Shown here: positions 3,780 to 53,115 of the stretch, piece after piece
Layout: every line of letters begins with the position of its first letter
Numbering within the stretch: the stretch's first letter is position 1
NCBI GenBank assembly: GCA_964413115.1
Contig: CAYPSQ010000002.1
Location: forward strand, 8,639 to 72,638
Length of the DNA: 64,000 bases
Reading direction: 5' to 3'
From: an uncultured Rhizobiaceae bacterium
Lineage (GTDB): Bacteria > Pseudomonadota > Alphaproteobacteria > UBA828
The notes under the pieces: generated by a model
Seen by the model: the letters and a program-made list of their open reading frames with translations, nothing else
Told to the model about the DNA's origin: nothing
Databases searched by the model: none
Made by a program: the position numbers and the translations under genes

Positions 3780-4634
3780 ATGCCTTTCGATTCGGAGCCC
3801 GAGGGAAAATTTGAGCGCCGGATATTTTTTTCCGCGCGCGCTTGGTGGCAGGATATTAGGAGCGCGCTGCGCTTCTTAACCCGCCTGCCGTTGCCGCGCG
3901 CGCCCGATCCGGCCGAGCTGGATTTCTTCGACGAAGTCGAAGAAGATGAGCAGGAGACACCCGCGCGCAGGCCTTTGGGCCGCGCGGTCCGCGCCTTCCC
4001 CTTGATCGGTGCCCTATTGGGCATCGCCGCCGGCTTTGCGTTTGCCATCGCCACCGGTGTCGGCCTGCCGGCTCTGGTGGCAGGTGTTATCGCAGTCGCG
4101 CTGTTGGCGTTGATGACTGGCGCCATGCATGAAGATGGCCTTGCCGATATGGCTGACGGCTTCGGCGGCGGGCAGACGGTCGAAAAGAAACTCGCCATCA
4201 TGCGCGACAGCCGTATCGGCGCATATGGTGTGATGGCCCTGGTCATGGTGCTGGCGGCGAAGGTCGGCGCCGTGGCGGACTTAAGTGATATTGGCGTCGT
4301 GATGTCAGGGCTGATTTGCGCTGCCGCCGCGTCGCGTGCGGCGATGCCGGCCATGATGTGCTGGCTGCCGGCGGCGCGCCCAGATGGTCTCGGCGCTGAG
4401 GCCGGGCGCCCGTCCAGTGAACATGTGTGGACCGGCATCATCATCGCTGTCATTCTTTCGGTTATCCTCCTCACTTGGTCGGGGTTGGTAGCGCTCCTCA
4501 TCGCGGCTCTTGGTACTTTCGCCGTTGGGCTCTTGGCGCGCAGGCAGATCCGCGGACATACAGGTGATGTCCTCGGCGGTGCGCAGCAAATTTCCGAACT
4601 CCTTTTCCTTCTCGCATTGGCGGCAATCAGATGA
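3780..4634 (+). CDS. cobS: Adenosylcobinamide-GDP ribazoletransferase (cobalamin 5'-phosphate synthase)
   Basis: Conserved ALRFLTRLPLP start motif and polytopic membrane protein with the MHEDGLADMADGFGGG motif. ATG at 3780 has a GGAGG SD 8 nt upstream. The ORF track start at 3738 is a GTG. Confidence 0.85.
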   Translation: MPFDSEPEGKFERRIFFSARAWWQDIRSALRFLTRLPLPRAPDPAELDFFDEVEEDEQETPARRPLGRAVRAFPLIGALLGIAAGFAFAIATGVGLPALVAGVIAVALLALMTGAMHEDGLADMADGFGGGQTVEKKLAIMRDSRIGAYGVMALVMVLAAKVGAVADLSDIGVVMSGLICAAAASRAAMPAMMCWLPAARPDGLGAEAGRPSSEHVWTGIIIAVILSVILLTWSGLVALLIAALGTFAVGLLARRQIRGHTGDVLGGAQQISELLFLLALAAIR

Positions 4635-31570: not shown

Positions 31571-32692
31571 CTAAACCCGCATGGGCATGATGACATAAAC
31601 GGCGTTTTCATCTTCCGAATCGCGTACCAAGGTGGGCGACGCTGAATCCGCAAGATGAAATTCGATGGTTTCGCCTGCTATCTGTTTAGCCATATCGAGC
31701 ACATACCGGGAGTTGAAGCCAATATCTATTTTTTCCAAGTTGTACTGCGCGTCGAGTTCTTCCGACGCTGCACCTGCATCCGGACTAGTCGCCGACAAAG
31801 TCATTTGAGAGTCTTCGAGAGCGATTTTTATGGCCCGCGATTTCTCTGTCGAAATCGTCGAGACGCGATCGACCGCTTTTATGAAGGCCTGCTTGTCGAC
31901 GGTCATGATCTTATCGTTCGCCGACGGAATAACGCGCTCATAATCAGGAAAAGAGCCGTCGATCAATTTAGAAGTCAGGATCGCGCCATCGAAGGCGAAG
32001 CGGACCTTGCTATCTGAAAGTGCAATCATCACGTCACCATCGCTCTCATCGATCAGCTTTCGCAGTTCGGCCACGGTCTTACGTGGAATGATGACTCCGG
32101 GAATGTTTTCCGCACCCGCCGGTAAGGCGGTATCAACCCGCGCTAGGCGATGTCCATCCGTTGCCACGGCGCGCAAACACTTGGCGCCTTCGCCGTCCAC
32201 CGCATGCAAATATATGCCGTTCAAATAATATCGCGTTTCCTCAGTCGATATTGCGAAGCCGGTCTTGTCGATCAGACGCTTGAGATCGCTGGCAGAGATC
32301 GCAAATCGGTGGTCTAGCTCGCCCTCGGCCATGACCGGGAAATCTTCGACGGGTAGACACGCCAACATAAATCGCGAACGGCCCGAACAAATTTGCAACT
32401 TGCCGCCATCCTGGATCAATGAAATCTCGACTTGGGCGCCTTCGGCCAACTTGCGTACGATATCATACAACATTTGGGCAGATGTTGTTGTAGCACCGGA
32501 TTGCACCACATTTGCGGGCGCCGCTTCGATCACCGCCAGGTCCATGTCCGTGGCCGTCAGGTGTAACTTCTCATCGTCCCCTACATCGAGCCGGACATTA
32601 GAGAGAATTGGAATCGTGTTGCGTCTCTCGACGACGCTCTGAACATGCCCGAGGGACTTCAGCAGCGCACTCCGTTCAATGGTTAATTTCAT
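31571..32692 (-). CDS. dnaN: DNA polymerase III beta subunit (sliding clamp)
   Basis: MKLTIERSALLKSL N-terminus. 373 aa. Confidence 0.93.
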   Translation of the reverse strand: MKLTIERSALLKSLGHVQSVVERRNTIPILSNVRLDVGDDEKLHLTATDMDLAVIEAAPANVVQSGATTTSAQMLYDIVRKLAEGAQVEISLIQDGGKLQICSGRSRFMLACLPVEDFPVMAEGELDHRFAISASDLKRLIDKTGFAISTEETRYYLNGIYLHAVDGEGAKCLRAVATDGHRLARVDTALPAGAENIPGVIIPRKTVAELRKLIDESDGDVMIALSDSKVRFAFDGAILTSKLIDGSFPDYERVIPSANDKIMTVDKQAFIKAVDRVSTISTEKSRAIKIALEDSQMTLSATSPDAGAASEELDAQYNLEKIDIGFNSRYVLDMAKQIAGETIEFHLADSASPTLVRDSEDENAVYVIMPMRV

Positions 32693-32896
32693 AGCAATAC
32701 AATGCGTGTTATCGATTTAAAATCAGCTGGGCTTAGGTTCCGAATCCAGCCGTTCCGGCGTCATTCGAGTTGCAGCGAATCGGAACTTTAAAACCATGGT
32801 TAAATATAACAGATAGGGGTCAGATTCGGCACTAAAAACACGCGTTGAAGGTGCGCTGGGTCAGCCCTGGAAATAGCGTTCCAGGTGGCCGATTTT

Positions 32897-34333
32897 CTAG
32901 CTTTCGAGGGTGCGTTTGAGAAGTTCCACGTCTTCCGCGATGGCCGCGTCGCTGAGGCGCAACTCTTCGATCTTCCGCACCGCGTGCATGACGGTTGTAT
33001 GATCGCGTCCCCCGAACTTGCGACCGATTTCAGGCAGCGAGCGCGAAGTCAATTGCTTGCTTAGAAACATCGCCACTTGGCGCGGACGGGCGACCGCACG
33101 AGCGCGACGTTCGGACGACATTTCCGATAGTTTGATATTGTAATGCTCGGCCACCCGGCGCTGGATTTCCTCAATCGTGATGCGCCGCTCGCTTGCTCGT
33201 AACACGTCGCGCAGGACTTCTTTTGCCATTTCCAGATCGATTTGGCGCCCTACCAGGGTGGAATGGGCGGTCACCCGGTTGAGGGCCATTTCTAATTCTC
33301 GGATATTGCTAGTGATTCGCCGCGCCAGGAATTCCAACACGTCGCGGGGCACGTCGACAGAGCCGATCGTTTCAATTTTCGCCAGAAGAATGCCGAGCCG
33401 GAGCTCGTAGGTGGTGGCGTGAATATCCGCCACCAGCCCCCAGCCGAGACGGGAGCGCAAGCGTTCCTCCATGGCGTCGAGATCGGATGGCGACCGGTCA
33501 CCGGATATCACAACCTGCCGGTTGTGATCGATCAACACGTTGAATGTATGGAAGAACTCTTCCTGAGTACTGTCCTTTCCGCAGATGAATTGGACATCGT
33601 CAATCATCAAGACATCAGCGGAGCGGAACTGTTCCTTGAACTCCATGGTGTCTTTGTAGCGAACCGCCCGAACGAAGTGATACATAAACTTCTCGGCCGA
33701 TAGATAGAGCACCCTACGGCTCGGGTCGCGTTCGCGGATATGACGCGCCATGGCGTGCATAAGATGAGTCTTGCCGAGGCCGACGCCGCCATACAGATAA
33801 AGTGGGTTAAACGGCACCTTGTCCGCTTCGGCCACGCGGCGCGCTGCAGCATGCGCGAATTCATTAGGTTTGCCGACAACAAATTCCGAAAATCCGAATC
33901 GTGGGTTAAGCGGTGAAGAGAGGGTGTCGACTTCCTCTTCAATCGCACGCAGGTGTAGGAAAGAACCACGTCCCGGTGCTTCGTCCAGCACCGGGGTCGA
34001 TGAAGTCGGCCGCTGCGGATTGATTTTCTGCAGCGTGCCTAGAGCTGGCGAGATAGCACTAAAGGTGACCACCTCGATCGTTACGACGCGGACATCGGGG
34101 TTCATCTCATGCCACAATTCAGCAATGCGGTCGGCATAGCGGGCGCTCACCCAGTCGCGCAGAAATCGCGTTGGCGCCGCTACCAGGGCCTTGCCATTCT
34201 CAATGTGGCGCAGTTTCAGGGGCTTCAACCAGCTGCGAAAAGCGGCATCGCCCAACTCTTCTTGGAGGCGCGCGCGGATGGCGGACCATTGGGCTTCATG
34301 GGGCGGATACGCAGATTTAGTTGTATTCGGCAT
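32897..34333 (-). CDS. dnaA: Chromosomal replication initiator DnaA
   Basis: AAA+ Walker A GGVGLGKTHLMHA and C-terminal DnaA-box binding domain. 478 aa. Confidence 0.95.
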   Translation of the reverse strand: MPNTTKSAYPPHEAQWSAIRARLQEELGDAAFRSWLKPLKLRHIENGKALVAAPTRFLRDWVSARYADRIAELWHEMNPDVRVVTIEVVTFSAISPALGTLQKINPQRPTSSTPVLDEAPGRGSFLHLRAIEEEVDTLSSPLNPRFGFSEFVVGKPNEFAHAAARRVAEADKVPFNPLYLYGGVGLGKTHLMHAMARHIRERDPSRRVLYLSAEKFMYHFVRAVRYKDTMEFKEQFRSADVLMIDDVQFICGKDSTQEEFFHTFNVLIDHNRQVVISGDRSPSDLDAMEERLRSRLGWGLVADIHATTYELRLGILLAKIETIGSVDVPRDVLEFLARRITSNIRELEMALNRVTAHSTLVGRQIDLEMAKEVLRDVLRASERRITIEEIQRRVAEHYNIKLSEMSSERRARAVARPRQVAMFLSKQLTSRSLPEIGRKFGGRDHTTVMHAVRKIEELRLSDAAIAEDVELLKRTLES

Positions 34334-34336
34334 CTG

Positions 34337-34852
34337 CTAGCCTTGAACCCATGGCAGCGCATGCATTTTCCAGCCGGATATTGTGCCACGGTGTTTGTCC
34401 GCGTCTGGCACGCCTTCAAACCCTTCCATGATATTGTAACAATTAGCGAAACCTTCAGCCGTACAGTGTTCTGCCGCCGCTGCGGAGCGCGCGCCGCTAC
34501 GGCATATAAAAAGAGCTGGTGCTGAGGATGGAACGCCGGCGCGCGCCAGGTCGAACGCAAATTCGTGGTTTTGCGACATGTCCGGAAAGCGCTGCCAGGA
34601 AATCAGCATCGGTTCTTTATTCAGTGAGCTGAGCTCGGGCACACCGACAAAATTCCACTCAGCATCGGTGCGCACGTCTACAAGCACGGCGTTAGTGTCG
34701 TCCGCGAGAATCTGCCAAGCTTCGCCCGGCGTGACATCACCGGCATAAGAAAACCCGGGCGCAAGCCGTTCCTTGGCTGTGCGCCACAAGCTGTCCCAAT
34801 CGACTCCCACCGTTGCTCCAGGCGCAATATTATTGTTGGTTACACTGCTCAT
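34337..34852 (-). CDS. Single-domain rhodanese-like protein (putative sulfurtransferase)
   Basis: Rhodanese fold with active-site loop CRSGARS. Stop codon is one codon upstream of, and in frame with, the dnaA ATG. Confidence 0.75.
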   Translation of the reverse strand: MSSVTNNNIAPGATVGVDWDSLWRTAKERLAPGFSYAGDVTPGEAWQILADDTNAVLVDVRTDAEWNFVGVPELSSLNKEPMLISWQRFPDMSQNHEFAFDLARAGVPSSAPALFICRSGARSAAAAEHCTAEGFANCYNIMEGFEGVPDADKHRGTISGWKMHALPWVQG

Positions 34853-35151
34853 GTCTGCTGAAAATTGGCCAAATCTCCCCGTTTGCGGCGCCTATTTTTT
34901 TAGCGCACCGCAAATTTACCCTTCTAAATTTTGTTGCCCCGCCAAGTTTTTTGGCGAGTGATCTTAGAGTAATGGCGTGGTGAAGGACTGGCAACAGGTC
35001 CGAAATAGGAACGTCAAATTTATTTTGCGCTTTTTCATGTCGCCAGCGTGAGCCTCGAACTGAGCGGTTAAAGCTAAGCGATTGGACTCTCAGCACAAGC
35101 CGCGATTGCTGGGTAATTTAGAGCTCAGGCTGATAGCGCGGGAAATATGTC

Positions 35152-35195
35152 ACAGGAAAATTTTTTTGCCCGGCGATATTATCAGCGCGGGCGGT
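35152..35195 (-). terminator. Putative intrinsic terminator downstream of rpsT (weak stem GCCCG/CGGGC followed by an A7U4 run)
   Basis: Inverted repeat at 35168-35192, flanked by an A/T homopolymer run at 35154-35167. Confidence 0.35.
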
Positions 35196-35208
35196 AGTGT
35201 TTATAATA

Positions 35209-35472
35209 CTAACTGAGCGCCTTGATGCGTTTATTGAGGCGGGAGATACGCCGTGCGGCCATGTTTAGGTGTAACACGCCCTTGGTGACGCCACGCATGA
35301 TTTCCGGCTGAAACACCTTCAAGGCTTCTTGCGCCGCTGGCTTGTCGCCGCTTTGGATCGCGTGTTCGACGTTCTGCATATAGGTCCGAATCCGGCTCAT
35401 CCGCGTGCGGTTGATTTCCGTACTCTTTACCAGTTGCCGAATTCGTTTTTTGGCCTGCACGGTGTGCGCCAT
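35209..35472 (-). CDS. rpsT: 30S ribosomal protein S20
   Basis: [13 protein letters not shown]... 87 aa, basic. Typical S20. Confidence 0.92.
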
Positions 35473-35561
35473 GGCGTACCTATGAAAATCTGTTTCGGGA
35501 AGCGCGGTTATATCGGCACGTCAAGCTGGCGTCAACCGCGCTCACCGCTTTGATCGCGCGG

Positions 35562-41962: not shown

Positions 41963-43294
41963 ATGGCTACCCGCAACGATCCCATCTTGCCCTTTGAAGC
42001 TCAGCAAATTAGGGTATCTACAGATTCAAGTTGGGAATTAAATGGAATTACGTCCGTGCTGAAAAATTTGCGTGTCTTGCTGATTATTTCTGGCGGCATA
42101 GCGGCTTATAAGAGTTTGGAGCTTATACGCGGACTGCGTGCCGGCGGTGCGCATGTGCGCCCAATTTTGACCAAGGGCGGAGCACAGTTCGTGACGCCGC
42201 TCTCCGTCGCCTCGTTGGCGTGCGAAAAGGTCCATAGCGAGCTGTACTCGCTCACCGATGAAAGTAAAATCGACCATATCCGATTGGCACGCGAGGTCGA
42301 TCTCGTTGTTGTCGCACCGGCAACGGCGGATATTCTGGCCAAGATGGCAAACGGCATCGCCGATGATCTTGCGACCACCGTACTGCTCGCCACCGACCGG
42401 CCGATATTGGTCGCGCCGGCGATGAATAGCCGCATGTGGGACAACGCCGCAACCCGGCGCAATTTGGCGCATTTGCAGGGTGATGGGGTGATGACGGTTG
42501 GGCCAGCACATGGCGAGCTTGCCGAGGGCGAAATTGGCCTCGGGCGCATGGCCGAACCGGCACAAATTCTCGCGGCGATTGATAATGCGCTGGGCGGCCC
42601 GCTGCTCGGACTGTGTGCTATTGTGACCAGTGGCCCCACCTATGAGCCTATCGATCCGGTACGTTATATAGCCAACCGTTCCTCCGGCAAGCAGGGACAT
42701 GCTATCGCTGGTGCCTGTGCTCGCCTCGGCGCCGCTGTTACCCTAGTGTCGGGGCCGACTGCTGAAGCTGATCCACCTGGGGTGGCGATGGTGCGTGTTG
42801 AAACAGCCCGAGATATGCTGGCAGCATGTCTCGAGGCGCTACCAGCCGATGTTGCTATCTGTGCCGCGGCGGTATCGGATTGGCGTCCGGCAGAGGCGCG
42901 GGTGCAGAAAATTAAGAAGGACAAGAGCGGTGCGGCCGCAGCTCCGGCTGATTTAAAACTGGTAGAAAACCCGGATATCCTGGCTGCCTTGGCGGCACAC
43001 GAGAACGAACGCCCGCGTCTGGTCATCGGATTTGCCGCCGAGACCGACGATGTCGTCGCTTATGCGCAGTCGAAACTTGTAACCAAGGGCTGCGATTGGA
43101 TTCTTGCTAATGACGTATCGCCGGAGACTGGCACCTTCGGTAGCGATCATAACAAAGTACATCTCATCAGCGTCGCGGCGGATGGCCAATCTGGCGATGC
43201 AGCCACAGTTGAAGAGTGGGCCTACGCCAGTAAATTAGACGTCGCCGCTCGCCTGGCGCAGCGCATTGCCCATACCTTGGGCAGCGCGGCATGA
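41963..43294 (+). CDS. coaBC: Bifunctional phosphopantothenoylcysteine decarboxylase / phosphopantothenate-cysteine ligase
   Basis: Flavoprotein domain [15 protein letters not shown] and C-terminal CoaB ligase domain. True start may be the GTG near 42056. Confidence 0.88.
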
Positions 43295-43755
43295 TTGACC
43301 AGGTCGAAGTAGCAGTTCGGCGGTTGCCGCACGGTAGCGATCTAGCTCTACCTGCCTATGCTAGTGGCGGCAGCGCTGGGCTTGATCTTCTAGCGGCCAT
43401 TGAGCGCGAGAAGGTTTTGGCTCCCGGCGAACGCTGCCTCGTGCCGTGCGGGATATGCTTGGCGCTTCCTGACGGCTATGAGGCGCAGGTGCGCGCGCGG
43501 TCCGGCTTAGCGCTGAAACACGGTCTCACGCTTCTCAATAGCCCGGGTACCATCGATTCTGATTATCGCGGCGAAATTGGGGTAATTCTTATAAATCACG
43601 GTGATGCGCCCTTCACCGTTGCGCGCGGCATGCGCATCGCGCAATTGGTTTTGGCGCCAGTGGTGCGCGCCGTCCTGGCGGAGACGCATTGTTTGCCCAA
43701 GACCGCGCGCGGCGCCAATGGTTTTGGCTCAACCGGCCTCAGTGCTAAAAATTAA
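43291..43755 (+). CDS. dut: dUTP diphosphatase
   Basis: GSAGLDL ... [15 protein letters not shown] dUTPase motifs. 154 aa. Confidence 0.92.
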
Positions 43756-43768
43756 TAGTTCATCCCTT

Positions 43769-44224
43769 ATGCTGGAACCTTCCAAAAAGCTTGTTTATGC
43801 GGTCGAATCGGTGGTCGATATCGCCTATAACGGCGGCACCGAGCCTGTGCGCAGCCGTGAAATTGCCAAGCGCCAGGGCGTACCGCACCGTTATTTAGAA
43901 CAAGTAATGCAGAGTCTCGTACATGGGGGCGTGTTGCGCGGCGTGCGCGGTCCGCGCGGTGGATATCTGCTGGCGCGGGAGCGCCGGCGCATCACGCTTG
44001 GTCATATCGCGCGGGTGGTGCTTGAACTTGAAAAGATGGACCACAAAGAAGCCAAAGGTGCTGCTTCTGATTTGGCAGATTACGTGCTTCAACCAATATG
44101 GAACGAGATGCAGGAAGATATGATGACCCGCCTCGACAAGATTACGATCGAAGATCTTTGCCAGCGTGCGATGAGTCTCGGTATCGAGCGCGCCTCTGAC
44201 ACGAAACTTGATTTTACAATTTAA
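43769..44224 (+). CDS. Rrf2 family transcriptional regulator (CymR-like, lacks the three-Cys cluster ligands)
   Basis: [42 protein letters not shown] winged-helix signature of Rrf2. Only one Cys. Start at MLEPSKKL (43769). Confidence 0.8.
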
Positions 44225-44238
44225 GGGCGGAAAATATC

Positions 44239-45207
44239 GTGACAGATCAAGACCAAAAAACATTCTCGCGCGGCCGAATTTACGAAAATTTCATAGAAAC
44301 GGTCGGTGGCACGCCGCTGGTACGGTTCAATCGGCTGCCGCAGCAGGCTGGCTGTAAGGCCGAAATAATTGCCAAGCTTGAATTTTTCAATCCCTTGGCC
44401 TCGGTTAAAGACCGTATAGGCTTCGCCATGATCGACGCTGCTGAAGAAGTGGGGCAGGCGGTCCCAGGAAAGACAATTTTGGTCGAGCCGACCTCGGGAA
44501 ATACCGGGATCGCGCTGGCCTTTGTCGCCGCGGCGAAAGGCTACCGCTTGATTCTGACTATGCCGGAGAGCATGTCTCAGGAACGGCGTAAGCTTCTCAA
44601 GCTGCTCGGCGCCGAACTCGAGCTGACACCACCGGAATTGGGGATGAAAGGTGCTATGGCAAGGGCTCAGGAAATCGTTTCGGAAAATGACGGTGCACTG
44701 ATGCTTCAGCAATTCGCCAACCTCGCCAATCCGGCAGTTCACCGCCGCACAACGGCGGAAGAAATATGGAACGATTGCGACGGCAAGTTGGATGTGTTTG
44801 TGGCTGGCGTCGGCACCGGCGGTACCATCACCGGTTGCGCCCAGGTGCTGAAACCCCGCTTGCCGAATTTGCGCGTGGTTGGGGTTGAGCCCGAGGACAG
44901 TTCCGTGCTGTCTGGCGGCGCACCGGGCCCGCATAAAATTCAAGGAATCGGGGCAGGATTCTTACCGGACATTCTGGAGACGTCGCTGATCAACGAATAC
45001 CTATCCATTGGTAACGAGACCGCATTCGAAACGGCGCGCCAAGTCGCCCGGATGGAGGGCATCCCGGTCGGGATTTCGTCGGGCGCCGCGGTGGCGGCAG
45101 CGCTTGAGGTCGGCTCCCGCGCCGATATGGTGGGCAAGCGCATCGTGGTCATCATACCGTCCTTTGCCGAGCGTTATCTGTCGACCGATCTCTTCAGCGG
45201 CGTCTAG
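44239..45207 (+). CDS. cysK: Cysteine synthase (O-acetylserine sulfhydrylase, PLP-dependent)
   Basis: PLP-lysine motif NPLASVKDR and [10 protein letters not shown] loop. Confidence 0.88.
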
Positions 45208-45227
45208 GACGGGATAGGGATCACCAC

Positions 45228-46049
45228 ATGGGCTTCGATGAATCCCAAATCGAGCGATATGCGCGCCATATCATTCTTCAAGAAGTCGGCGGGCGCGGGC
45301 AGGCCAAGCTGCTCAATTCGAACGTGCTTGTGGTCGGCGCTGGTGGCTTGGGCTCGCCGCTACTGCTCTATCTCGCTGCGGCTGGTGTTGGCACGCTGGG
45401 AATTGTCGATGATGACCGGGTAAGCTTATCAAATTTGCAGCGCCAAGTTATTCACACCAGTGATGGGTTGGGCGACCTCAAGGTCGAAAGTGCCGAGCGC
45501 ACTATCCATGCGATTAATCCCGACGTCACCGTGGTCGCGCATAACGAGCGGCTGACCGCGGAAAACGCCATGGATTTAATCTCTGCCTATGATTTGGTGG
45601 CCGATGGCAGCGATAATTTTGAAACACGGTTTCTGATCAACGATGCCTGCTATCTGGCTAAACGTACTCTTGTGTCGGCGGCGATCCTGCGGTTCGATGG
45701 CCAGCTCTCCACCTTTAAGGCGCATCTCGGTGAGGGCCATCCTTGCTACCGCTGTATTTTTCGCGAACCGCCACCGCCTGGTCTCATTCCGTCCTGCGCC
45801 GAGGGCGGCATTCTTGGCGCCGTGGCGGGCTCGATGGGTTCTCTGCAATCGACTGAAGTGCTGAAGGAATTACTCGACATCGGAGAAAGTCTATCCGGCA
45901 CGCTTATCATCTATGATGCGTTGAGCGCGACCTTCCGCAATGTGCGTGTCAAACCCGACCTGACCTGCCCGCTGTGCGGCGAGACTCCGACGATCACAGA
46001 CCTCACATCGCACTTGGCGAGCGCCGGCGAAGGCTGTGCGATGCCCTGA
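45228..46049 (+). CDS. moeB: MoeB/ThiF-type E1-like adenylyltransferase (sulfur-carrier protein activating enzyme), no rhodanese domain
   Basis: Nucleotide-binding VLVVGAGGLGSP and the two zinc CxxC pairs (CYRC, CPLC). Confidence 0.8.
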   Translation: MGFDESQIERYARHIILQEVGGRGQAKLLNSNVLVVGAGGLGSPLLLYLAAAGVGTLGIVDDDRVSLSNLQRQVIHTSDGLGDLKVESAERTIHAINPDVTVVAHNERLTAENAMDLISAYDLVADGSDNFETRFLINDACYLAKRTLVSAAILRFDGQLSTFKAHLGEGHPCYRCIFREPPPPGLIPSCAEGGILGAVAGSMGSLQSTEVLKELLDIGESLSGTLIIYDALSATFRNVRVKPDLTCPLCGETPTITDLTSHLASAGEGCAMP

Positions 46050-46079
46050 TTCGCGGCACGTTGCGCCAGCTGCGCTTGC

Positions 46080-46373
46080 TTGTCACACTCCTTAAGTCAT
46101 CAAGTGAAAGCGGAGACACGTGCGGTGCTGAGAGACGAAATCGTTGATATCGCAGATATCTATGTTCCCTTGAAGCGGCGCAATAGCCTGAATCAAGAGA
46201 CCGTGGCCGCGCTCGCTGAAAGCATTTTGGAAGATGGCATGAAAGTGCCGATACAATTGCGCAAGGACGGCGGCCGTTTTGTCCTCGTCGAAGGATTACA
46301 CCGGCTAGAGGCATGCCGCGCGCTTGGCGATGAAAATATTACTTGCATCATCGTTGACGCACGCAAATCGTGA
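46080..46373 (+). CDS. ParB N-terminal (ParB/Srx-fold) domain-only small protein
   Basis: ADIYVP...LAESILEDGMKVPIQLRKDGGRFVLVEGLHRLEACRALG parallels the ParB N-domain GERRxRA region. TTG start in the ORF track. A GTG at ~46105/46126 is more likely. Confidence 0.55.
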   Translation: MSHSLSHQVKAETRAVLRDEIVDIADIYVPLKRRNSLNQETVAALAESILEDGMKVPIQLRKDGGRFVLVEGLHRLEACRALGDENITCIIVDARKS

Positions 46374-46451
46374 GGTACCCTTTAAAAATTTCAATCTCCC
46401 AGGTAGGGAGTTCTAGAAAAATTTGACTATCATATTGGTGCACGCGGCCCG

Positions 46452-46724
46452 ATGCGGCGCGTACATGAGTACAAATACCGTCGGGTGTTCGCCTATCTCG
46501 GGCCGCTTGAAAGTAAAAGTGTGGATTGGGCGGAATGGGTCACCGGTGATTCGCCCGGGCGCCTAACAAAAATTAGCAACAGGCTTTACGCCCAAAAAGT
46601 GAGTCTGGAGAAAAAGCAGGAGCGCGACAACAACCAGGCGGCAATTACCCATTATGATCGCGGCCTGGAATTTCTGAAATTTACCTGTTACTGCGGGGAC
46701 TTCAGTTGTAATTGGCCGGATTGA
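46452..46724 (+). CDS. Orphan hypothetical protein, Cys-rich C-terminus (FTCYCGDFSCNW), in a low-GC islet
   Basis: 90-aa ORF in a locally AT-rich region. No recognisable family. Confidence 0.35.
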   Translation: MRRVHEYKYRRVFAYLGPLESKSVDWAEWVTGDSPGRLTKISNRLYAQKVSLEKKQERDNNQAAITHYDRGLEFLKFTCYCGDFSCNWPD

Positions 46725-46779
46725 TAACACCAGATCGTTAGTGCCGAGTGGTTGAGTTAGTGGCCCGGCTCTTCATCTT

Positions 46780-47772
46780 TCAGGCTGTACTTTCGATTAC
46801 CCGATCGGGCGGCATGTGACCATCAGCCCAAGTTTGAATGTTGATCAACACTTTTTCGCCCATATCGAGGCGGCCTTCGACGGTTGCTGAGCTCATATGC
46901 GGTAGCAGGACAACATTTTCGAGCTTGAGGAGTTTAGCGTTGATTGCCGGTTCGTTCTCGTAAACGTCGAGACCGGCGCCGGCGATGCTTCCTTGTTCCA
47001 ACAGCATAGCGAGCGCGGTCTCATCAATAGCATGGCCGCGCGATGTATTGACGATATAGCTGGTCGGGCGAATGAGCTTGAGCCGGCGCGCCGACAGTAA
47101 ATGGAAGGTTGCCGGCGTGCTCGGGCAATGGATAGTGATAAGGTCCATGTGAGCCAGCATCTGGTCAAGGCTTTCCCACCACGTGGCATCAAGTTCTTCT
47201 TCGATCTCGGCATGCACGCGTTTGCGGTTGTGATAATGGATCGTCAGCCCAAAACCGAGCGCGCGCCGTGCAACCGCCTGGCCGATCCGGCCCATGCCGA
47301 TGATGCCGAGGCGTTTGCCCCAAATGCGCTGACCAAGCATCGAGGTCGGTGCCCAACCTTGCCAGCTTCCGTCACGTACCAGCCGGTCGCCTTCGGTCAA
47401 CCGCCGGGGCGCAGCCAAGAGCAAAGCCATTGCCATATCGGCGGTGTCCTCAGTCAAGACACCTGGGGTGTTGGTGACCAGTATATCGTGCTCCCTGGCA
47501 GCAGCTAGATCGACATGATCAACTCCGGTACCGAAACTGGCGATCAGTTTGAGCTGCGGGCCAGCGGCGGCAATGACCTTGCGATCGATCGAATCGGTGA
47601 CCGTCGGCACGACGACATCGGCGCTTTGTACGGCCTGAATCAACTCGCCCTGGCTGAGCGGCGTGTCTGATTCGTTGAGACGCGTATCGAACAGCTCCAT
47701 CATGCGTGCCTGAATCTGATCCGGCAGGCGGCGGGTGATGAATACCAGCGGCTTTTTACTCGACAGCGGCAT
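46780..47772 (-). CDS. D-isomer-specific 2-hydroxyacid dehydrogenase (glyoxylate/hydroxypyruvate reductase-like)
   Basis: NAD-binding GIIGMGRIGQAVARRA and catalytic domain motifs. Start at MPLSSKKPLVF preferred. Confidence 0.85.
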   Translation of the reverse strand: MPLSSKKPLVFITRRLPDQIQARMMELFDTRLNESDTPLSQGELIQAVQSADVVVPTVTDSIDRKVIAAAGPQLKLIASFGTGVDHVDLAAAREHDILVTNTPGVLTEDTADMAMALLLAAPRRLTEGDRLVRDGSWQGWAPTSMLGQRIWGKRLGIIGMGRIGQAVARRALGFGLTIHYHNRKRVHAEIEEELDATWWESLDQMLAHMDLITIHCPSTPATFHLLSARRLKLIRPTSYIVNTSRGHAIDETALAMLLEQGSIAGAGLDVYENEPAINAKLLKLENVVLLPHMSSATVEGRLDMGEKVLINIQTWADGHMPPDRVIESTA

Positions 47773-47940
47773 GATTTTCCTTGTTCTACTCTTTGGCGTG
47801 CGTACCACCGCTAATTTCGGCGAAACCGCCTCTCTTGTCTAGCAAAGCAGGCTCATCGAGACAATTGAGCGCGGCGCCGATGATCTAGTATAAGCTGAGT
47901 GGTCGAATAATTAACCTGAGTCTGAAAGATCAACACCCGA

Positions 47941-48447
47941 ATGTGCCTTGCACGCCTAATTACATCGCTTCTTGCTGCTGTTGGCCTGATTGCCTGCTTG
48001 TGGCTGTGGTCACTGGCGGCGACGGGCGCTGCGGATTCCTTGCCGCTGCCGCGCTTCGTTTCGCTGAAATCGTCGGAGGTAAATCTGCGCACTGGCCCCG
48101 GGAAACGATATCCCATCGATTGGGTCTATCATCGCCGCGGGCTGCCGGTAGAGATAATCGCTGAATTCGACAATTGGCGTCGGGTGCGCGATTCAGAAGG
48201 CGTCGTGGGGTGGGTTCATCATGCGCTTTTATCGGGCCGCCGCGGCGCTCTGGTCGCGCTGCCAGAACGCATCTTTCGCCGCGCGCCGGAAATCGGCGCA
48301 CAGGCCTTATTTCAGGCTGCGACTGGCGTACTGGTGGAAATTATTTCCTGCGATGGCGTGTGGTGTAAAGTTTCGCACGACGATACCAATGCCTGGACAA
48401 AACAAAGCGGGCTTTGGGGCGTTTATCCTGGAGAGGTGATAGAGTAA
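47941..48447 (+). CDS. Secreted bacterial SH3-domain protein (two SH3b repeats)
   Basis: Signal peptide LLAAVGLIACLWLWSLAATGAA, then two ~60-aa repeats with VNLRTGPG... / WVHHALL and W..V signatures. Confidence 0.7.
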   Translation: MCLARLITSLLAAVGLIACLWLWSLAATGAADSLPLPRFVSLKSSEVNLRTGPGKRYPIDWVYHRRGLPVEIIAEFDNWRRVRDSEGVVGWVHHALLSGRRGALVALPERIFRRAPEIGAQALFQAATGVLVEIISCDGVWCKVSHDDTNAWTKQSGLWGVYPGEVIE

Positions 48448-48457
48448 GGCTGGGTAA

Positions 48458-49051
48458 TCAGTCGAAATCCGTGCCGAGCGCGCGCCGGGCGGTTTCCGGA
48501 ATGACCGCCATATGGCCGTAATTGGAATGATTTATGGATATCACGGTGCGCACCGCGTTATCGAGAAATCTCTCTATTTTGTCGGGGCTGAATTCAAACT
48601 GTAGAAAATGCACCGCGGATGTTTTGCCTTCGCCGGTGGTACGCTTAACCGTGTCGGCAATCGGCTGAGCCGCAATAGCGTTATCGCCAAGCTCAATGCG
48701 AATAGTTTTCTCGATGCCGCCGAGGCGGGCCAATTCACGCGCCCGCACGGTGCCGTCTGCAATTTCCAACATGAGTGTCGCGACGAGATTTCTTCCATTT
48801 GGAATCAATGGATTGTAAGCGTTCAATTCGCCTGAAACCTGTTCCTCTCCACCGCGCTCGACAAACAACATCTCGTGAATCTGCATCCACATAGTGTCGT
48901 AGCTCTCGAAATAAAATGTTGCAAATGGGCCGACGGCAATGCGCCGGGCGCGTTTAACACCGCTGATTTGCGCACGCCTTGCAGCTCGCTCGTCGGCATA
49001 TGTGGCCATATCCATGATATCGGAAGGAAATATTTTACGTTTAGTCGCCAT
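48458..49051 (-). CDS. DUF3501 family protein
   Basis: 197-aa protein, last gene of the rubrerythrin operon. Assigned to DUF3501 by recall of its sequence pattern and its conserved neighbourhood, not by a search. Confidence 0.55.
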   Translation of the reverse strand: MATKRKIFPSDIMDMATYADERAARRAQISGVKRARRIAVGPFATFYFESYDTMWMQIHEMLFVERGGEEQVSGELNAYNPLIPNGRNLVATLMLEIADGTVRARELARLGGIEKTIRIELGDNAIAAQPIADTVKRTTGEGKTSAVHFLQFEFSPDKIERFLDNAVRTVISINHSNYGHMAVIPETARRALGTDFD

Positions 49052-49060
49052 GTAAATTTC

Positions 49061-50434
49061 CTATTTGCCGAGTTCGTAGGCCCGGGCGAAGAGCTCGATG
49101 GGGTGATAGGCGCGCGTAACTTTCGGTAATGCCGAGGCGCCGTCCTTATGTTCTTTGCTTTCTGCCGCGAGCAGTTCCATGCCGGCGACAATATGGCTGG
49201 CGGCAAGCGGGCATTCAGATGCGATGAAGCGGCTGCCGTTTTCCAGAGCGCGCCGTGCCGTGGGTTTGCCGACCTTGAGCGCAATCTCGTGGAAATCCCG
49301 GGTGACGCCAATCGAGCCACCATGGCCTGAGCAACGCTCGATCACTTCAATTTCCGCGTTCGGCACGAGCTTTAGCATGTCTGCCGCCTTATTGCCGATA
49401 TTCTGCGCGCGGGCGTGGCATGCCATATGCAGAGTCACACCGCCCTCGAGGGTTCCCATGCCCTCGGCTAATCCTTCATCGCGGGCAATGGCGACGATGT
49501 ATTCGGTGATGTCGAAGCTGTGTGCTGCCAGCCGCGCTACCTTGGCATCCTCAGGCAGCAGGAGCGGCCATTCAAGTTTGAGCATGAGTGCGCAGCTCGG
49601 CACTAAGGCGACGACGTCGTAGCCCTTGTCGATCCAATTTCCGAGCTCAGCGGCGGTTTTCATGGCGTTTTCAGCAACTCGCGCAATATCTCCCTGTTCG
49701 AGCTGTGGCATGCCGCAGCAGCGTGGATACACTACCTCGCAGGTCACCCCATTATGGGCAAGAACCGCCAGCGCCGCCTCGCCGATGGCGGGAGAATTGT
49801 AATTGGTGAAGCAAGTGGCATAGAGCGCGACCTTGCGCCCTTGGGCTGGAGCTGAGCCGTTCACCGCTGGTGGGTTCTTGCGTGCTCGGCGCAGAAATGT
49901 CGGGTTGCGAAATCGCGGTAGGCGCGCTTCGCGGTGAATACCGGCCAGCTTTTCCATCGCTAACCGGCTGAGGCGGTTGCTTTTTTGTGCTCCCCAATTC
50001 ATCAGCGGTGCAAAAATGCGCGCAAGACGCCCATTCTTATCTGTTTCGGCGAGTCGTGGACTGGCCGAGGTCGGTGCCTGCCCGTTGCGATGCTGGTTGG
50101 CGCGGTAGCGCAACATGAGATGCGGAAAATCGATATTCCATTCATGTGGTGGGGTATATGGGCATTTGGTCATGAAGCACATGTCGCACAGTGTGCAGGC
50201 ATTGACGACACTGGCGAAGTCCGCCGATGCAACGCCATCGACTTCACCGGTCTTTGAGTCGTCTACCAGATCGAACAGGCGGGGGAAGGAATCGCACAGG
50301 CTGAAACAACGTCGGCAGCCATGGCAGATGTCGAACACCCGCCGCATTTCCACATCGAGCGCTGGCGCATCGAAAAATTCAGGATCGCGCCATGCGACAG
50401 GATGGCGTATCGGTGCACCGGGATCCACAGCCAT
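49061..50434 (-). CDS. Heterodisulfide-reductase/GlcF-like iron-sulfur protein (2x[4Fe-4S] ferredoxin motifs + two CCG domains)
   Basis: CHGCRRCFSLCDSFP and CTLCDMCFMTKCPYTP ferredoxin-type motifs. CCG-domain cysteines (PRCCGMP, CSGHGG, ECPLAAS). Confidence 0.8.
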   Translation of the reverse strand: MAVDPGAPIRHPVAWRDPEFFDAPALDVEMRRVFDICHGCRRCFSLCDSFPRLFDLVDDSKTGEVDGVASADFASVVNACTLCDMCFMTKCPYTPPHEWNIDFPHLMLRYRANQHRNGQAPTSASPRLAETDKNGRLARIFAPLMNWGAQKSNRLSRLAMEKLAGIHREARLPRFRNPTFLRRARKNPPAVNGSAPAQGRKVALYATCFTNYNSPAIGEAALAVLAHNGVTCEVVYPRCCGMPQLEQGDIARVAENAMKTAAELGNWIDKGYDVVALVPSCALMLKLEWPLLLPEDAKVARLAAHSFDITEYIVAIARDEGLAEGMGTLEGGVTLHMACHARAQNIGNKAADMLKLVPNAEIEVIERCSGHGGSIGVTRDFHEIALKVGKPTARRALENGSRFIASECPLAASHIVAGMELLAAESKEHKDGASALPKVTRAYHPIELFARAYELGK

Positions 50435-51155: not shown

Positions 51156-51587
51156 TCACTGCGCGGCGGGCGCGCCGTTTCTGACACGAATAATTATGTC
51201 GATGCGCGAAATTTCGGCTCCTTCAGGGAGCGCAGGTAATTCGCCGATGGCGATATTATCGCCGGAGACGTCACGTAATTTTCCACTGTCCTCAAAATAC
51301 AGGTGGTGGTGGGCGCTGATATTAGTGTCGAAATAGGACCGACCGGCATCGACGACCAATTCCCGCAACAATCCCGCACTGGTGAATTGGTGCAGCGTGT
51401 TGTAGACGGTCGCGAGAGAGACACTGACCCCTTGGCCGAGCGATTCGGAGTGGAGCTGTTCGGCGGTGACGTGCCGGTCGTTGCCCGAAAACAGTTGCTG
51501 CGCCAGCGACCGGCGTTGACGCGTCGGCCGCAGTCCGGCATCGCGGAGCAACTCCATGATATCGTCTGATGTCACGTTCTGGCGCAT
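51156..51587 (-). CDS. irr: Fur-family iron response regulator Irr (heme-responsive)
   Basis: LRPTRQRRSLAQQLF ... VSLATVYNTLHQFTSAGLLRELVVDAGRSYFDTNISAHHHLYFEDSG closely parallels Bradyrhizobium Irr, including the HHH heme-regulatory motif. Confidence 0.8.
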   Translation of the reverse strand: MRQNVTSDDIMELLRDAGLRPTRQRRSLAQQLFSGNDRHVTAEQLHSESLGQGVSVSLATVYNTLHQFTSAGLLRELVVDAGRSYFDTNISAHHHLYFEDSGKLRDVSGDNIAIGELPALPEGAEISRIDIIIRVRNGAPAAQ

Positions 51588-51714
51588 ACCTAGTCTCAGC
51601 TAATGAACACTTGTCTTGATCTCCAGCACACAACATAGAGTTGAACAATTCTAAATCAAGAAGGGATTATAAATTGCTACCCTAGGGGCGGTTTCCCGCA
51701 GCCCTTTACAGGCG

Positions 51715-53115
51715 CTAGTCGCCCGTTACCATGCGGCTGACAAGTTCCTTTACTGACGGAATGAAGCCGTTGGAGTAAAAAGGATCCGTCGCAAATTGGT
51801 AAGCGCCGTGGCCGGAGAACATCAGTTGATCCTCGACATCGTCTTCGTCATGGATGATCACCTGTAGAGTCTTTTGGATACAAAAGCTGCGCGGATCGGC
51901 CTTCTTGCCGGTGGTGAAATCAGGGTTTGTTGACCAATTGCTGAACCGGCACGATGATAGGCAGCCCATGCAGGCGGCCTGATCGTTGCGGATTTCCCGG
52001 GCCTTGTCGTCGGTCACAAATATTAGGGTCGAATCGGGCGTTTTCATGACCCGTTTGAAGCCGCTACCTAGCCATTCCTGAGCGCGTTTAAAATCGCCCT
52101 TGGTGAGATAAAACGACCGACCGCGCGGGCCTGGGGTGAGCTTTTGGTCATGATCTCCGAGCGGCTCCGAGGTGAACGCTACTTGATGCTGTTCGCGTTG
52201 TTCCAGGTCGTTGATAAATTTATTTCTAACGGCTGATGAATAGAACCCGGTGGGGCTGAATTTGTTGAGGCCGACATCGCCTTTTTTCAGGGTCAACAGG
52301 CGGCGCTTCCAGCTATCGGATATAGGGCTTTCCTTGGTCACCAACGGACGCGTGCCCAATTGGAAAGCGATGGGACCGATTTCCGGATTATCTATCCAAT
52401 CTTGCCACTCTCGTAGATACCAAACGCCACCGGCCATGATAATTGGCACCTTATGCAGGCCGATGCTGTTCATCAACCTGCGTAGGTCACGCACGCGCGG
52501 ATAGGGATCTTCCGGTTTGTTGGGATCTTCGCTGTTGGAGAGGCCGTTATGGCCACCGGCGCGCCACGGGTCTTCATAGACGACACCGCCGAGCAAATCC
52601 GAGAATTTGTGATAAGCGCGTTTCCACAGCGCCCGGAATGCGCGGCCCGAAGAAACGATAGGGTAATAATGCACCTGATATTGATTGGCGATCTCGGCGA
52701 TTCGGTACGGCATGCCAGCGCCGCAGGTAACCCCATGAATCAGGCCTTTGCCGCGCTCGAGGATGGCGCGAAGGATTCGTTCGCTAGCTGCCATCTCCCA
52801 CAGGATGTTCATGTGCAGGCGGCCTTTGCCGCCGGACGTTTCATGGGCGATGCGGGCTTGCGCCAAACCGCCTTCAACCGCGTATTTCACCAGCTCTTCG
52901 TGGCGTTCGCGGCGTGTTCGGCCGTGATAGATTTGCGGTATCAACTGGCCGTCCGCGTCGTAAGAATCAGCATTGACGCCCGAGAACGTGCCAACTGCGT
53001 CGGCTGCCGCCCACGCACCCGAAGACAGCCCATTGGTGACGCCAATGCCTTTGCCGCCTTCGATCAATGGCAACACTTCTTTGCCTGAAACAATCAGTGG
53101 ATGAAGCGCCTTCAA
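51715..53115 (-). CDS. NMO/FabK/PfaD-like FMN-dependent oxidoreductase family protein, long (466 aa), with a C-terminal Cys cluster
   Basis: PLIEGGKGIGVTNGLSSGAWAAADAVGTFSGV and IIMAGGVW resemble the nitronate monooxygenase/enoyl-reductase TIM-barrel motifs. C-terminal CMGCLSSC. Confidence 0.5.
   Translation of the reverse strand: MKALHPLIVSGKEVLPLIEGGKGIGVTNGLSSGAWAAADAVGTFSGVNADSYDADGQLIPQIYHGRTRRERHEELVKYAVEGGLAQARIAHETSGGKGRLHMNILWEMAASERILRAILERGKGLIHGVTCGAGMPYRIAEIANQYQVHYYPIVSSGRAFRALWKRAYHKFSDLLGGVVYEDPWRAGGHNGLSNSEDPNKPEDPYPRVRDLRRLMNSIGLHKVPIIMAGGVWYLREWQDWIDNPEIGPIAFQLGTRPLVTKESPISDSWKRRLLTLKKGDVGLNKFSPTGFYSSAVRNKFINDLEQREQHQVAFTSEPLGDHDQKLTPGPRGRSFYLTKGDFKRAQEWLGSGFKRVMKTPDSTLIFVTDDKAREIRNDQAACMGCLSSCRFSNWSTNPDFTTGKKADPRSFCIQKTLQVIIHDEDDVEDQLMFSGHGAYQFATDPFYSNGFIPSVKELVSRMVTGD

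Follow-up and report, generated by a model that had tools for sequence, protein, structure and literature searches.

Locus between moeB and the hydroxyacid dehydrogenase gene

The window analysed here, a stretch of 64,000 nucleotides from an uncultured Rhizobiaceae bacterium (assembly GCA_964413115.1, contig CAYPSQ010000002.1, positions 8,639 to 72,638 of the forward strand), carries two small open reading frames (ORFs) between a moeB gene and a convergent 2-hydroxyacid dehydrogenase gene; they were first called at 46080-46373 (+, 97 amino acids from a TTG) and at 46452-46724 (+, 90 amino acids, hereafter ORF90), the latter with the C-terminal end FTCYCGDFSCNWPD. A first-pass annotation had taken the pair for a small cassette, horizontally acquired and related to defence or toxin-antitoxin systems. 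The corrected annotation consists of one real gene, most likely with a GTG start and a product of 82 amino acids, which encodes a stand-alone protein of the ParB/sulfiredoxin (Srx) fold, and one pseudogene, the remnant of a partner gene that is intact in related lineages (Table 1).

Table 1. Features of the window from moeB to the dehydrogenase gene
Feature	Position	Strand	Basis
moeB/ThiF-family adenylyltransferase; upstream flank	45228..46049	+	Pfam ThiF, E 4e-77; NCBIfam MoeB subfamily, 297.8 bits, above cutoff
Leader from moeB to the ParB-like gene, 75 nt, conserved; Shine-Dalgarno GGAG at 46112-46115	46050..46124	+	Sequence; alignments with relatives
Stand-alone ParB/Srx-fold gene, most likely 82 amino acids from a GTG start	46125..46373	+	Homologue lengths; fold model; selection
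Partner gene, dead 5' part (AT-rich spacer of the first-pass annotation)	46377..46451	+	Conceptual translation against intact relatives
ORF90, open remnant corresponding to codons 27-116 of the 117-residue partner gene; pseudogene	46452..46724	+	Population variants; ω; alignment
D-2-hydroxyacid dehydrogenase / glyoxylate reductase-like; convergent downstream flank	46780..47808	-	Pfam 2-Hacid_dh_C, E 8e-57

Start and family of the ParB-like gene

Regarding its length, a word-indexed homology search with the ParB-like protein found 2796 homologous clusters, nearly all of 81-82 amino acids, and a GGAG sits 9 nt 5' of the GTG at 46125; in view of these homologue lengths and of the GGAG so placed, this GTG is most likely the true start, with a predicted product of 82 amino acids. 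The TTG at 46080 (97 amino acids) and a GTG at 46104 (89 amino acids) were rejected on the same two grounds, so that, of the 97-residue protein limited to a ParB N-domain that was first described, the fold-only nature stands (Pfam, phrog, PDB profile and Foldseek) and the length does not.

Stand-alone proteins of the ParB/sulfiredoxin fold form a large family, found mainly in Alphaproteobacteria, of which the protein is a member. The family members, mostly from Alphaproteobacteria and from metagenome-assembled genomes of Rhodospirillales, are named only 'ParB N-terminal domain-containing protein'; the family is already present in the databases under this generic name, the fold is well known, and literature searches found no paper on the small 82-residue family. 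Elsewhere, its members stand alone, without a conserved partner, in a variety of unrelated contexts: next to response regulator/DctP genes, luciferase-like/GFA/amidohydrolase genes, hydrolase/amidase genes, a PQQ dehydrogenase or a desaturase, and on chromids of Microvirga and Ruegeria. A tblastn search of a phage collection with the family gave nothing at E 1e-6.

Several paralogues of the 82-residue gene occur on Microvirga replicons; the gene was located at 15 places in 10 plasmid records, 8 of them from Microvirga. At two Microvirga loci, the opposite strand carries a ParA-family gene 1.2-3.3 kb upstream (L109 86-751 and L110 2145-2810, with the ParB-like gene at 4001-4249 in both); a link with ParA was considered here and rejected, as the two genes do not adjoin each other and the pair of loci, being probably orthologous, is not independent evidence.

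Fold and conserved motifs

As for the fold, which is composed of a strand, helices, a beta-hairpin, the P-motif helix and a strand, the protein has a match to phrog_3264 with an E value of 1e-17. A family alignment of 38 diverse members (A2, 59-96% identity), used as a profile against the sequences of the PDB, found the Arabidopsis sulfiredoxin 6ky4 first (E 3.8e-8, residues 7-77) and, after it, ParB, Noc, SbnI, PadC and KorB. The AlphaFold2 (AF2) model of the 82-residue protein has a predicted local distance difference test score (pLDDT) of 91.6, and the Foldseek comparison with the PDB returned a probability of 1.00 for 51 solved chains; the best solved match was again 6ky4, with TM-scores of 0.82 on the query (TMq) and 0.76 on the target (TMt), a root-mean-square deviation of 1.8 Å and 32% identity. 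With the ParB-CDP structure 6sdk, TMq was 0.84 and TMt 0.37, the ParB chain being much longer; the matches span only the first ~80 residues of the ParB chains (TMt 0.3-0.4). Fold matches in BFVD concern the generic fold only, at 31% identity or less.

The conserved boxes were assigned with the definitions of Box I, Box II and Box III given in PMC12704722. The Box I-like helix and loop (residues 24-42) are retained, and the Box II P-motif is GLHR (residues 57-60), with G57-L58-H59-R60 invariant in the 38 diverse members. The motif that the first-pass annotation had placed in the position of the ParB arginine motif is indeed there: a GxxR in the Box II position, aligned with GERR of ParB and GCHR of sulfiredoxin, in the wider alignment of GLHRLEAC with ParB GERRLRA and sulfiredoxin GCHRYEA. 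In all, 23 invariant columns were reported for A2: Y13, P15, R18, R19, V27, A31, G38, P42, R46, R51, L54, G57-L-H-R-L-E-A-C64, L67, G68, V77 and A79. The positions of the Glu of ParB GERR and of the catalytic Cys of sulfiredoxin both correspond to an invariant Leu in the family. Box III (ENLQR), the helix-turn-helix (HTH) and the dimerisation domain are all absent, since the protein stops at residue 82, five past the strand that follows Box II; Box III is often missing in orphan ParB proteins (PMC12704722).

Comparison with known ParB/Srx-fold systems

Judged by its motifs, the protein is a member of the ParB/Srx fold superfamily that lacks the defining features of both the ParB clamps and the sulfiredoxins. 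Sulfiredoxins (Arabidopsis 6ky4, human 1xw3/3cyi) are likewise single-domain proteins of this fold and of similar size; the 82-residue protein is comparable with their single-domain range of about 90-140 amino acids, and the 6ky4 match spans both proteins, while human Srx is ~20 residues longer. The His-Arg of their nucleotide-phosphate motif is also present, but the signature F-G/S-G-C-H-R reads V-E-G-L-H-R in the family and, because the catalytic Cys is an invariant Leu, the 82-residue protein cannot be a classical sulfiredoxin. It should be noted that, outside cyanobacteria, bacteria are reported to lack Srx almost entirely (PMC12704722), whereas the 82-residue family is alphaproteobacterial.

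With the ParB/Spo0J/Noc/KorB clamps the protein shares the N-terminal ParB-CTPase fold, the Box I-like helix and loop and the Box II GxxR, and the arginine of the ParB QPR aligns with its Box I Arg, R19. The clamps, however, have Box III (ENLQR), an HTH and a C-terminal dimerisation domain, and because it has none of these the 82-residue protein cannot be a DNA clamp; moreover, it has no ParA-binding motif, and Leu takes the place of the GERR Glu. The genomic setting differs as well: clamps go with a parAB operon and parS, whereas neither parA nor parS lies near the 82-residue gene, which has moeB and the dehydrogenase as its neighbours in the window and in all the syntenic relatives.

Minimal forms of the fold have been described mainly in phages and archaea, and the bacterial 'single-domain' matches are mostly of 300 amino acids or longer (PMC12704722). 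The short single-domain ParB-CTPase-fold proteins of phages and archaea (~100 amino acids in PMC12704722, 84-117 in BFVD) consist of the fold alone, as here, but their identity to the 82-residue protein is 31% or less, and the family studied here is, unlike them, chromosomal or chromid-borne, alphaproteobacterial and vertically inherited.

Position, descent and selection

Orthologous junctions were fetched via MoeB from 80 GTDB species representatives, with a best MoeB identity of 75%. The order cysK-moeB-(gap)-dehydrogenase-SH3-DUF3501 is widely kept across these loci, and the description of the flanks (moeB/ThiF and 2-hydroxyacid dehydrogenase) as core genes is borne out; neither the ParB-like gene nor its partner was found at the junction in any of the 80 loci by tblastn and hidden Markov model searches. 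In four distant loci the gap is 22-78 bp, so that the dehydrogenase directly adjoins moeB. Given this absence in distant relatives, the ParB-like gene was inserted at some point, and to this extent the horizontal origin first proposed survives; that of a recent islet does not, as relatives with 95-69% identity in the ParB-like protein are syntenic.

The close metagenomic relatives all have the 82-residue gene at the same site, 76 bp after moeB (95 bp in L105), with identities of the encoded protein of 95% (L081), 87% (L086-L089), 83% (L090-L092), 80% (L101/L102, including a TARA scaffold and GCA_030746645.1) and 69% (L105). The synonymous divergence (dS) between the window and L081 is 0.246 for the ParB-like gene, compared with 0.235 for moeB, 0.245 for cysK and 0.187 for the dehydrogenase; the pairwise ratio of nonsynonymous to synonymous rates (ω) of the ParB-like gene is 0.07-0.15, like its housekeeping neighbours, and denotes strong purifying selection. 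Its GC content tracks that of the host, from 0.48 in a host of 55.6% GC to 0.60 in one of 64.8% GC, and is always a few points under that of its neighbours. Because of the common site in relatives, the parity of dS with the flanks, the low ω and the host-tracking GC, the ParB-like gene is an old resident, vertically inherited, and not a recent import; it would have entered the moeB-dehydrogenase junction in an ancestor of the clade and been passed on vertically since. Family-wide conservation at this position with normal codon usage, which the first-pass annotation had named as the pattern that would contradict its cassette, is essentially what is found for the ParB-like gene.

The base composition had been part of the islet proposal. 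The dip in GC is real but modest: region 46050-46780 has a GC of 0.512 against a window mean of 0.595 (standard deviation 0.041 in 731-bp windows), about two standard deviations below it. Although this region was reported as the lowest-GC 731-bp stretch of the window, four others are equivalent, namely 34791-35521 (0.508), 32201-32931 (0.513), 51561-52291 (0.514) and 48341-49071 (0.514), so that the dip stands and its outstanding character does not. The ParB-like gene itself, with a GC of 0.520 (z -2.1) and a third-position GC (GC3) of 0.573 (z -1.6), lies at the low edge among the 46 long ORFs of the window.

The same junction has other contents elsewhere among the GTDB loci: a ~150-residue ORF, DsrE-like by eye, in three, an opposite-strand GNAT-like ORF in one and another small protein in two (L002 2035-2543, L004 6780-7288, L006 6789-7207, L018 6747-7295, L027 and L061), with inserts of 1.6-3.8 kb at still other junctions; across Rhodospirillales and relatives, the occupancy of this slot varies.

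The partner gene and its remnant in the window

In the close relatives L086-L092 and L101/L102, an ORF of 117 amino acids starts 4 nt after the stop of the ParB-like gene in the arrangement TGAggcATG, and is translationally coupled to it. This intact partner is under purifying selection (ω 0.14-0.16 for L086, L090 and L101); it had no Pfam, NCBIfam or PADLOC match (its E value in PADLOC was 0.025, and ORF90 gave none) and a weak match to phrog_20201.

In the window, the nucleotide alignment shows that the spacer 46374-46451 has as its homologue the first 26 codons of this gene, which are rich in Lys. The former ATG is now ACC (46377-46379), and the frame contains two stops, TAA at 46383-46385 and TAG at 46404-46406: the window reads GTL*KFQSPR*GVLEKFDYHIGARGPM where the intact relatives read GMAEKIFKSPKQGVLKKFGYQVGARGPM. 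The GY motif of the partner has become DY, and indels in 46377-46451 set the window apart from its closest relatives. The promoter-like spacer of the first-pass annotation is thus dead 5' coding sequence; no promoter match on the + strand was found in 46374-46451. No Shine-Dalgarno sequence precedes the ATG at 46452, from which ORF90 is open.

As for ORF90, it aligns to positions 27-116 of the domain that makes up the intact partner and retains R63, L64, K66, L98, W114 and P115, being homologous but degraded: five near-invariant residues are changed (R31H, L35Y, G56V, D97G and F112C), and the positions of G18, Y19 and G22 lie 5' of stop codons. Within the lineage of the window its ω is 1.2-1.4; it has 11-12 differences, of which 8-9 are nonsynonymous, against 4-5 in the ParB-like gene, all synonymous. 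The exact ParB-like protein was found on 27 contigs and the exact ORF90 on one.

The two frames were also compared in a population sample of eleven related loci against the window (L121 ends before ORF90 and was omitted from the variant counts). All eleven encode an identical ParB-like protein, beside which ORF90 carries the nonsense alleles W29* (L113) and D83* (L118, L119 and L120) and a 1-bp frameshift (L116). Counted as distinct variant codons, the ParB-like gene has 7 synonymous and 0 nonsynonymous, and ORF90 5 and 27, respectively (Fisher p = 5e-5). The cysteines of the C-terminal tail, on which the description of an orphan Cys-rich ORF was based, vary even among the closest relatives (CYCG, CYYG, CCCG and CHYG), and are limited to the lineage of the window and one further variant, P0124. 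In other lineages, L081 and L082 have a clear pseudogene, with the same loss of the start as in the window and, in addition, a 54-bp deletion and frameshifts, and no second ORF is present behind the ParB-like gene in L105.

ORF90 is, in conclusion, a pseudogene that is open only from an internal Met and drifts neutrally. The partner gene would have been inserted directly behind the ParB-like gene, with the TGAggcATG coupling; its start would have been lost, and the stops gained, in an ancestor common to the window and its closest relatives, with neutral drift since. Its N-terminal coding sequence, rich in Lys and Phe, accounts for the AT-rich runs and for some of the dip in GC, which are leftovers of it.

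The variant P0124 has 90 amino acids; its N-terminal part is like that of the intact 117-residue lineages (ENILRRVFAF...EIEGVDW) and its tail is that of the window, which suggests either recombination between lineages or a chimera of metagenome assembly.

The domain family of the partner

The word-indexed search found 6 close proteins with ORF90 as the query and 19 with the intact 117-residue protein. On the former number ORF90 could pass for an orphan, a status that was overturned by an exhaustive profile search, which revealed a wider domain family: 1248 representative proteins, 349 of them at E 1e-10 or better, with the whole 117 residues forming the domain. This domain of ~110 amino acids has the motifs GYxVG ... 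WGxPxSxxRLxK ... DLxWLKxxYYxGxFxFWP, and its near-invariant residues are G18, Y19, G22, R31, L35, W55, G56, R63, L64, K66, D97, L98, L101, Y106, F112, W114 and P115. It is mostly located at the extreme C-terminus of proteins of 150-610 amino acids (a median of 4 residues beyond the domain), and stand-alone versions of it, of 113-121 amino acids, exist as well. The N-terminal regions of the longer proteins are mostly unrecognised, with WYL in 5 of 104 and single cases of Sel1, pentapeptide repeats, HEAT and Mrr_N.

The domain is not modelled in Pfam-A, NCBIfam or PADLOC, its profile gave nothing significant against PDB sequences, and the AF2 model of the 117-residue partner, built on a 10-sequence alignment, was poor (pLDDT 54). 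None of 144 domain-bearing proteins was a fusion with ParB_N, and no ParB_N family member adjoins the domain proteins in three plasmid loci. The annotated examples are 'hypothetical proteins', mostly on conjugative plasmids near defence-type genes: the one on a Rhizobium plasmid adjoins IS91, a recombinase, SLATT with a nucleotidyltransferase, and DUF4365, those on Proteus conjugative plasmids adjoin RadC, DUF2787 and a restriction/helicase/methylase block, and a further one lies on a Pseudomonas conjugative megaplasmid. Annotated domain loci are L108 5001-5324, L122 6001-6321 and L123 6001-6282.

In the multidomain proteins (alignment A3; e.g. P0144 at ~131-137, P0149, P0146 and P0147), a second motif, F-x-W-P-S/T-T, is found ~20 residues upstream of the domain, with W, P and T nearly invariant; it mirrors the terminal F-x-W-P, so that the same motif brackets the domain.

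Possible role and alternative explanations

The explanation that we consider likely for the locus as a whole is that of a live, fold-only gene of old vertical descent, putatively dependent on a nucleoside triphosphate (NTP), next to the relic of a dead partner. Binding of the NTP would involve the Box I helix and loop, the Box II GxxR (G57-L-H-R60) and the invariant R18, R19, R46 and R51, and the 82-residue protein would then work, as a small enzyme or switch dependent on the NTP, on a partner encoded elsewhere. Its gene is probably co-transcribed with Rrf2-cysK-moeB, a conserved run of which moeB is the final gene and whose synteny is kept in all the relatives, because a promoter/terminator scan of 45800-47000 found no terminator-like site between moeB and the ParB-like gene and because the leader is conserved.

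Some observations weigh against this explanation. The Pfam ParB_N (PF02195) match is borderline, with E 3e-5 and 24.4 bits against a cutoff of 26.3 bits. As for the putative NTP binding, the catalytic Glu of ParB (GERR) is a Leu here, and the residue that matches the ATP-contacting Lys61 of sulfiredoxin is a Thr; in addition, 17 of 28 ParB-fold proteins showed no NTP binding when purified and assayed in vitro (PMC12704722), so the fold alone is no guarantee of NTP binding. Regarding the partner, ORF90 is still open over 90 codons in several genomes, and a residual or new function is possible, while the history of the partner, as read from few lineages, could be one of gain after the split of L105 or of loss in L105. 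Nucleotide specificity, for its part, is not predictable from sequence or AlphaFold3 (PMC12704722).

Of the other roles that the fold may suggest, the one with the most in its favour is a sulfiredoxin-type, ATP-dependent enzyme that would act on a sulfur-containing substrate, for instance in the repair of oxidised Cys or in small-molecule phosphorylation, tied to Rrf2-cysK-moeB and with Cys64 as a reactive residue. The plant sulfiredoxin is the top solved match, end to end (E 4e-8, 32% identity, TM 0.82/0.76), the His-Arg of the GCHR motif and Cys64 are invariant, the place behind cysK-moeB has been kept over dS above 2, and no terminator follows moeB. This role is nonetheless unlikely, because the defining catalytic Cys of F-G/S-G-C-H-R has given way to an invariant Leu and other members of the family are found in unrelated contexts (luciferase-like/GFA/amidohydrolase, amidase, DctP, PQQ dehydrogenase and desaturase), while Cys64 may be structural, since it stands at the small Ala/Ser position of the ParB GERRxRA(A/S) helix. 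Still less can be expected of a free N-domain that would modulate a canonical ParB, or another ParB-fold protein, by heterodimerisation, as a decoy or regulator of N-engagement: the N-domains of ParB and Noc do dimerise face to face upon CTP binding, with 6sdk and 7bm8 among the fold matches, the Box I and Box II surfaces are retained, and a ParA-family gene is 1.2-1.9 kb off in Microvirga replicons; on the other hand, the identity to ParB N-domains is ~22-28%, and there is no parA/parB neighbourhood in the window or in most contexts, which makes this role quite improbable.

The recently acquired two-gene mobile cassette, toxin-antitoxin-like or anti-phage, with the ParB-fold protein and the Cys-rich ORF as its components, retains a very slight probability. 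It could draw on the GC of the region, reported as the lowest within the window, on the distant relatives without the ParB-like gene at a variably occupied junction, on the translational coupling of the two genes in sister lineages, like that of many toxin-antitoxin pairs, on the existence of ParB-fold toxins and defence components, and on the partner's domain, which is found on conjugative plasmids in the vicinity of genes for restriction and defence. The synteny, the parity of dS and the tracking of host GC, however, denote a long vertical residence and largely refute it. The PADLOC matches of the ParB-like protein are only weak and local (MTase_II at E 3e-4, PD-Lambda-5_A at E 1e-3 or worse) and cover the generic fold alone, and no integrase, tRNA, mobility gene or flanking repeat was found at the locus (repeat scan of 45800-47000). 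The pairing is not obligate, as the ParB-like gene is without the partner in L105 and solo where the context is unrelated. Beside an identical ParB-like protein, the partner is missing, a pseudogene or polymorphic for null alleles, and both toxin-antitoxin polarities are disfavoured because the ParB-like protein is unaltered where the partner has gone or been inactivated, as happened repeatedly, and is under constraint even in its absence. The defence or toxin-antitoxin context of the first-pass annotation is therefore not retained. The lowest probability is given to ORF90 as a functional, shortened Cys-rich protein, neofunctionalised after truncation and translated from the ATG at 46452. Its frame has stayed open over 90 codons in at least four close relatives besides the window, a gene caller predicted it there, and its C-terminal Cys could in principle bind a metal, but the ω of 1.2-1.4, the nonsense and frameshift alleles next to an identical ParB-like protein, the variable Cys positions, the loss of the GYxVG motif and of five near-invariant residues, the missing Shine-Dalgarno and the vanished translational coupling leave it barely credible.

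Returning to the live gene with its dead partner, a broader formulation is possible but rather doubtful: the 82-residue proteins may represent a large, strongly constrained and uncharacterised bacterial class of free-standing ParB/Srx-fold NTP-dependent enzymes or switches, neither clamp nor sulfiredoxin, in which the minimal fold, with Box I and GxxR but not Box III, would act autonomously, with the neighbour at this locus coming from an undescribed domain of ~110 amino acids (more than 1200 representative clusters).

Significance and further features of the locus

The re-examination removes a false lead, as the locus is no island and no toxin-antitoxin or defence module. What remains new is a large, tightly conserved family of the minimal fold, together with an unnamed partner domain: in many Alphaproteobacteria, strong selection maintains a free-standing protein that is no more than the ParB/sulfiredoxin fold and, as minimal forms are described mainly in phages and archaea and Srx is reported to be almost missing from bacteria (PMC12704722), the 82-residue family is a compact and tractable candidate in which to study the role of the minimal fold by itself. 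The domain of the partner forms a sizeable family of its own, which could merit description.

Concerning the surroundings of the gene, an Rfam scan of 45800-47000 found no RNA family. The leader 46050-46124 is almost invariant among relatives with synonymous dS of 0.2-0.9, which suggests that, in addition to the GGAG, it holds a conserved signal for regulation or translation. Finally, the window (~41963-49051 and beyond) shares with L081 and L086 a tightly conserved gene order, coaBC-dut-Rrf2-cysK-moeB ... 2-hydroxyacid dehydrogenase-SH3 protein-DUF3501-CCG-domain protein-rubrerythrin-Fur, which gives the ParB/Srx-fold gene a neighbourhood with a redox, sulfur and iron theme.

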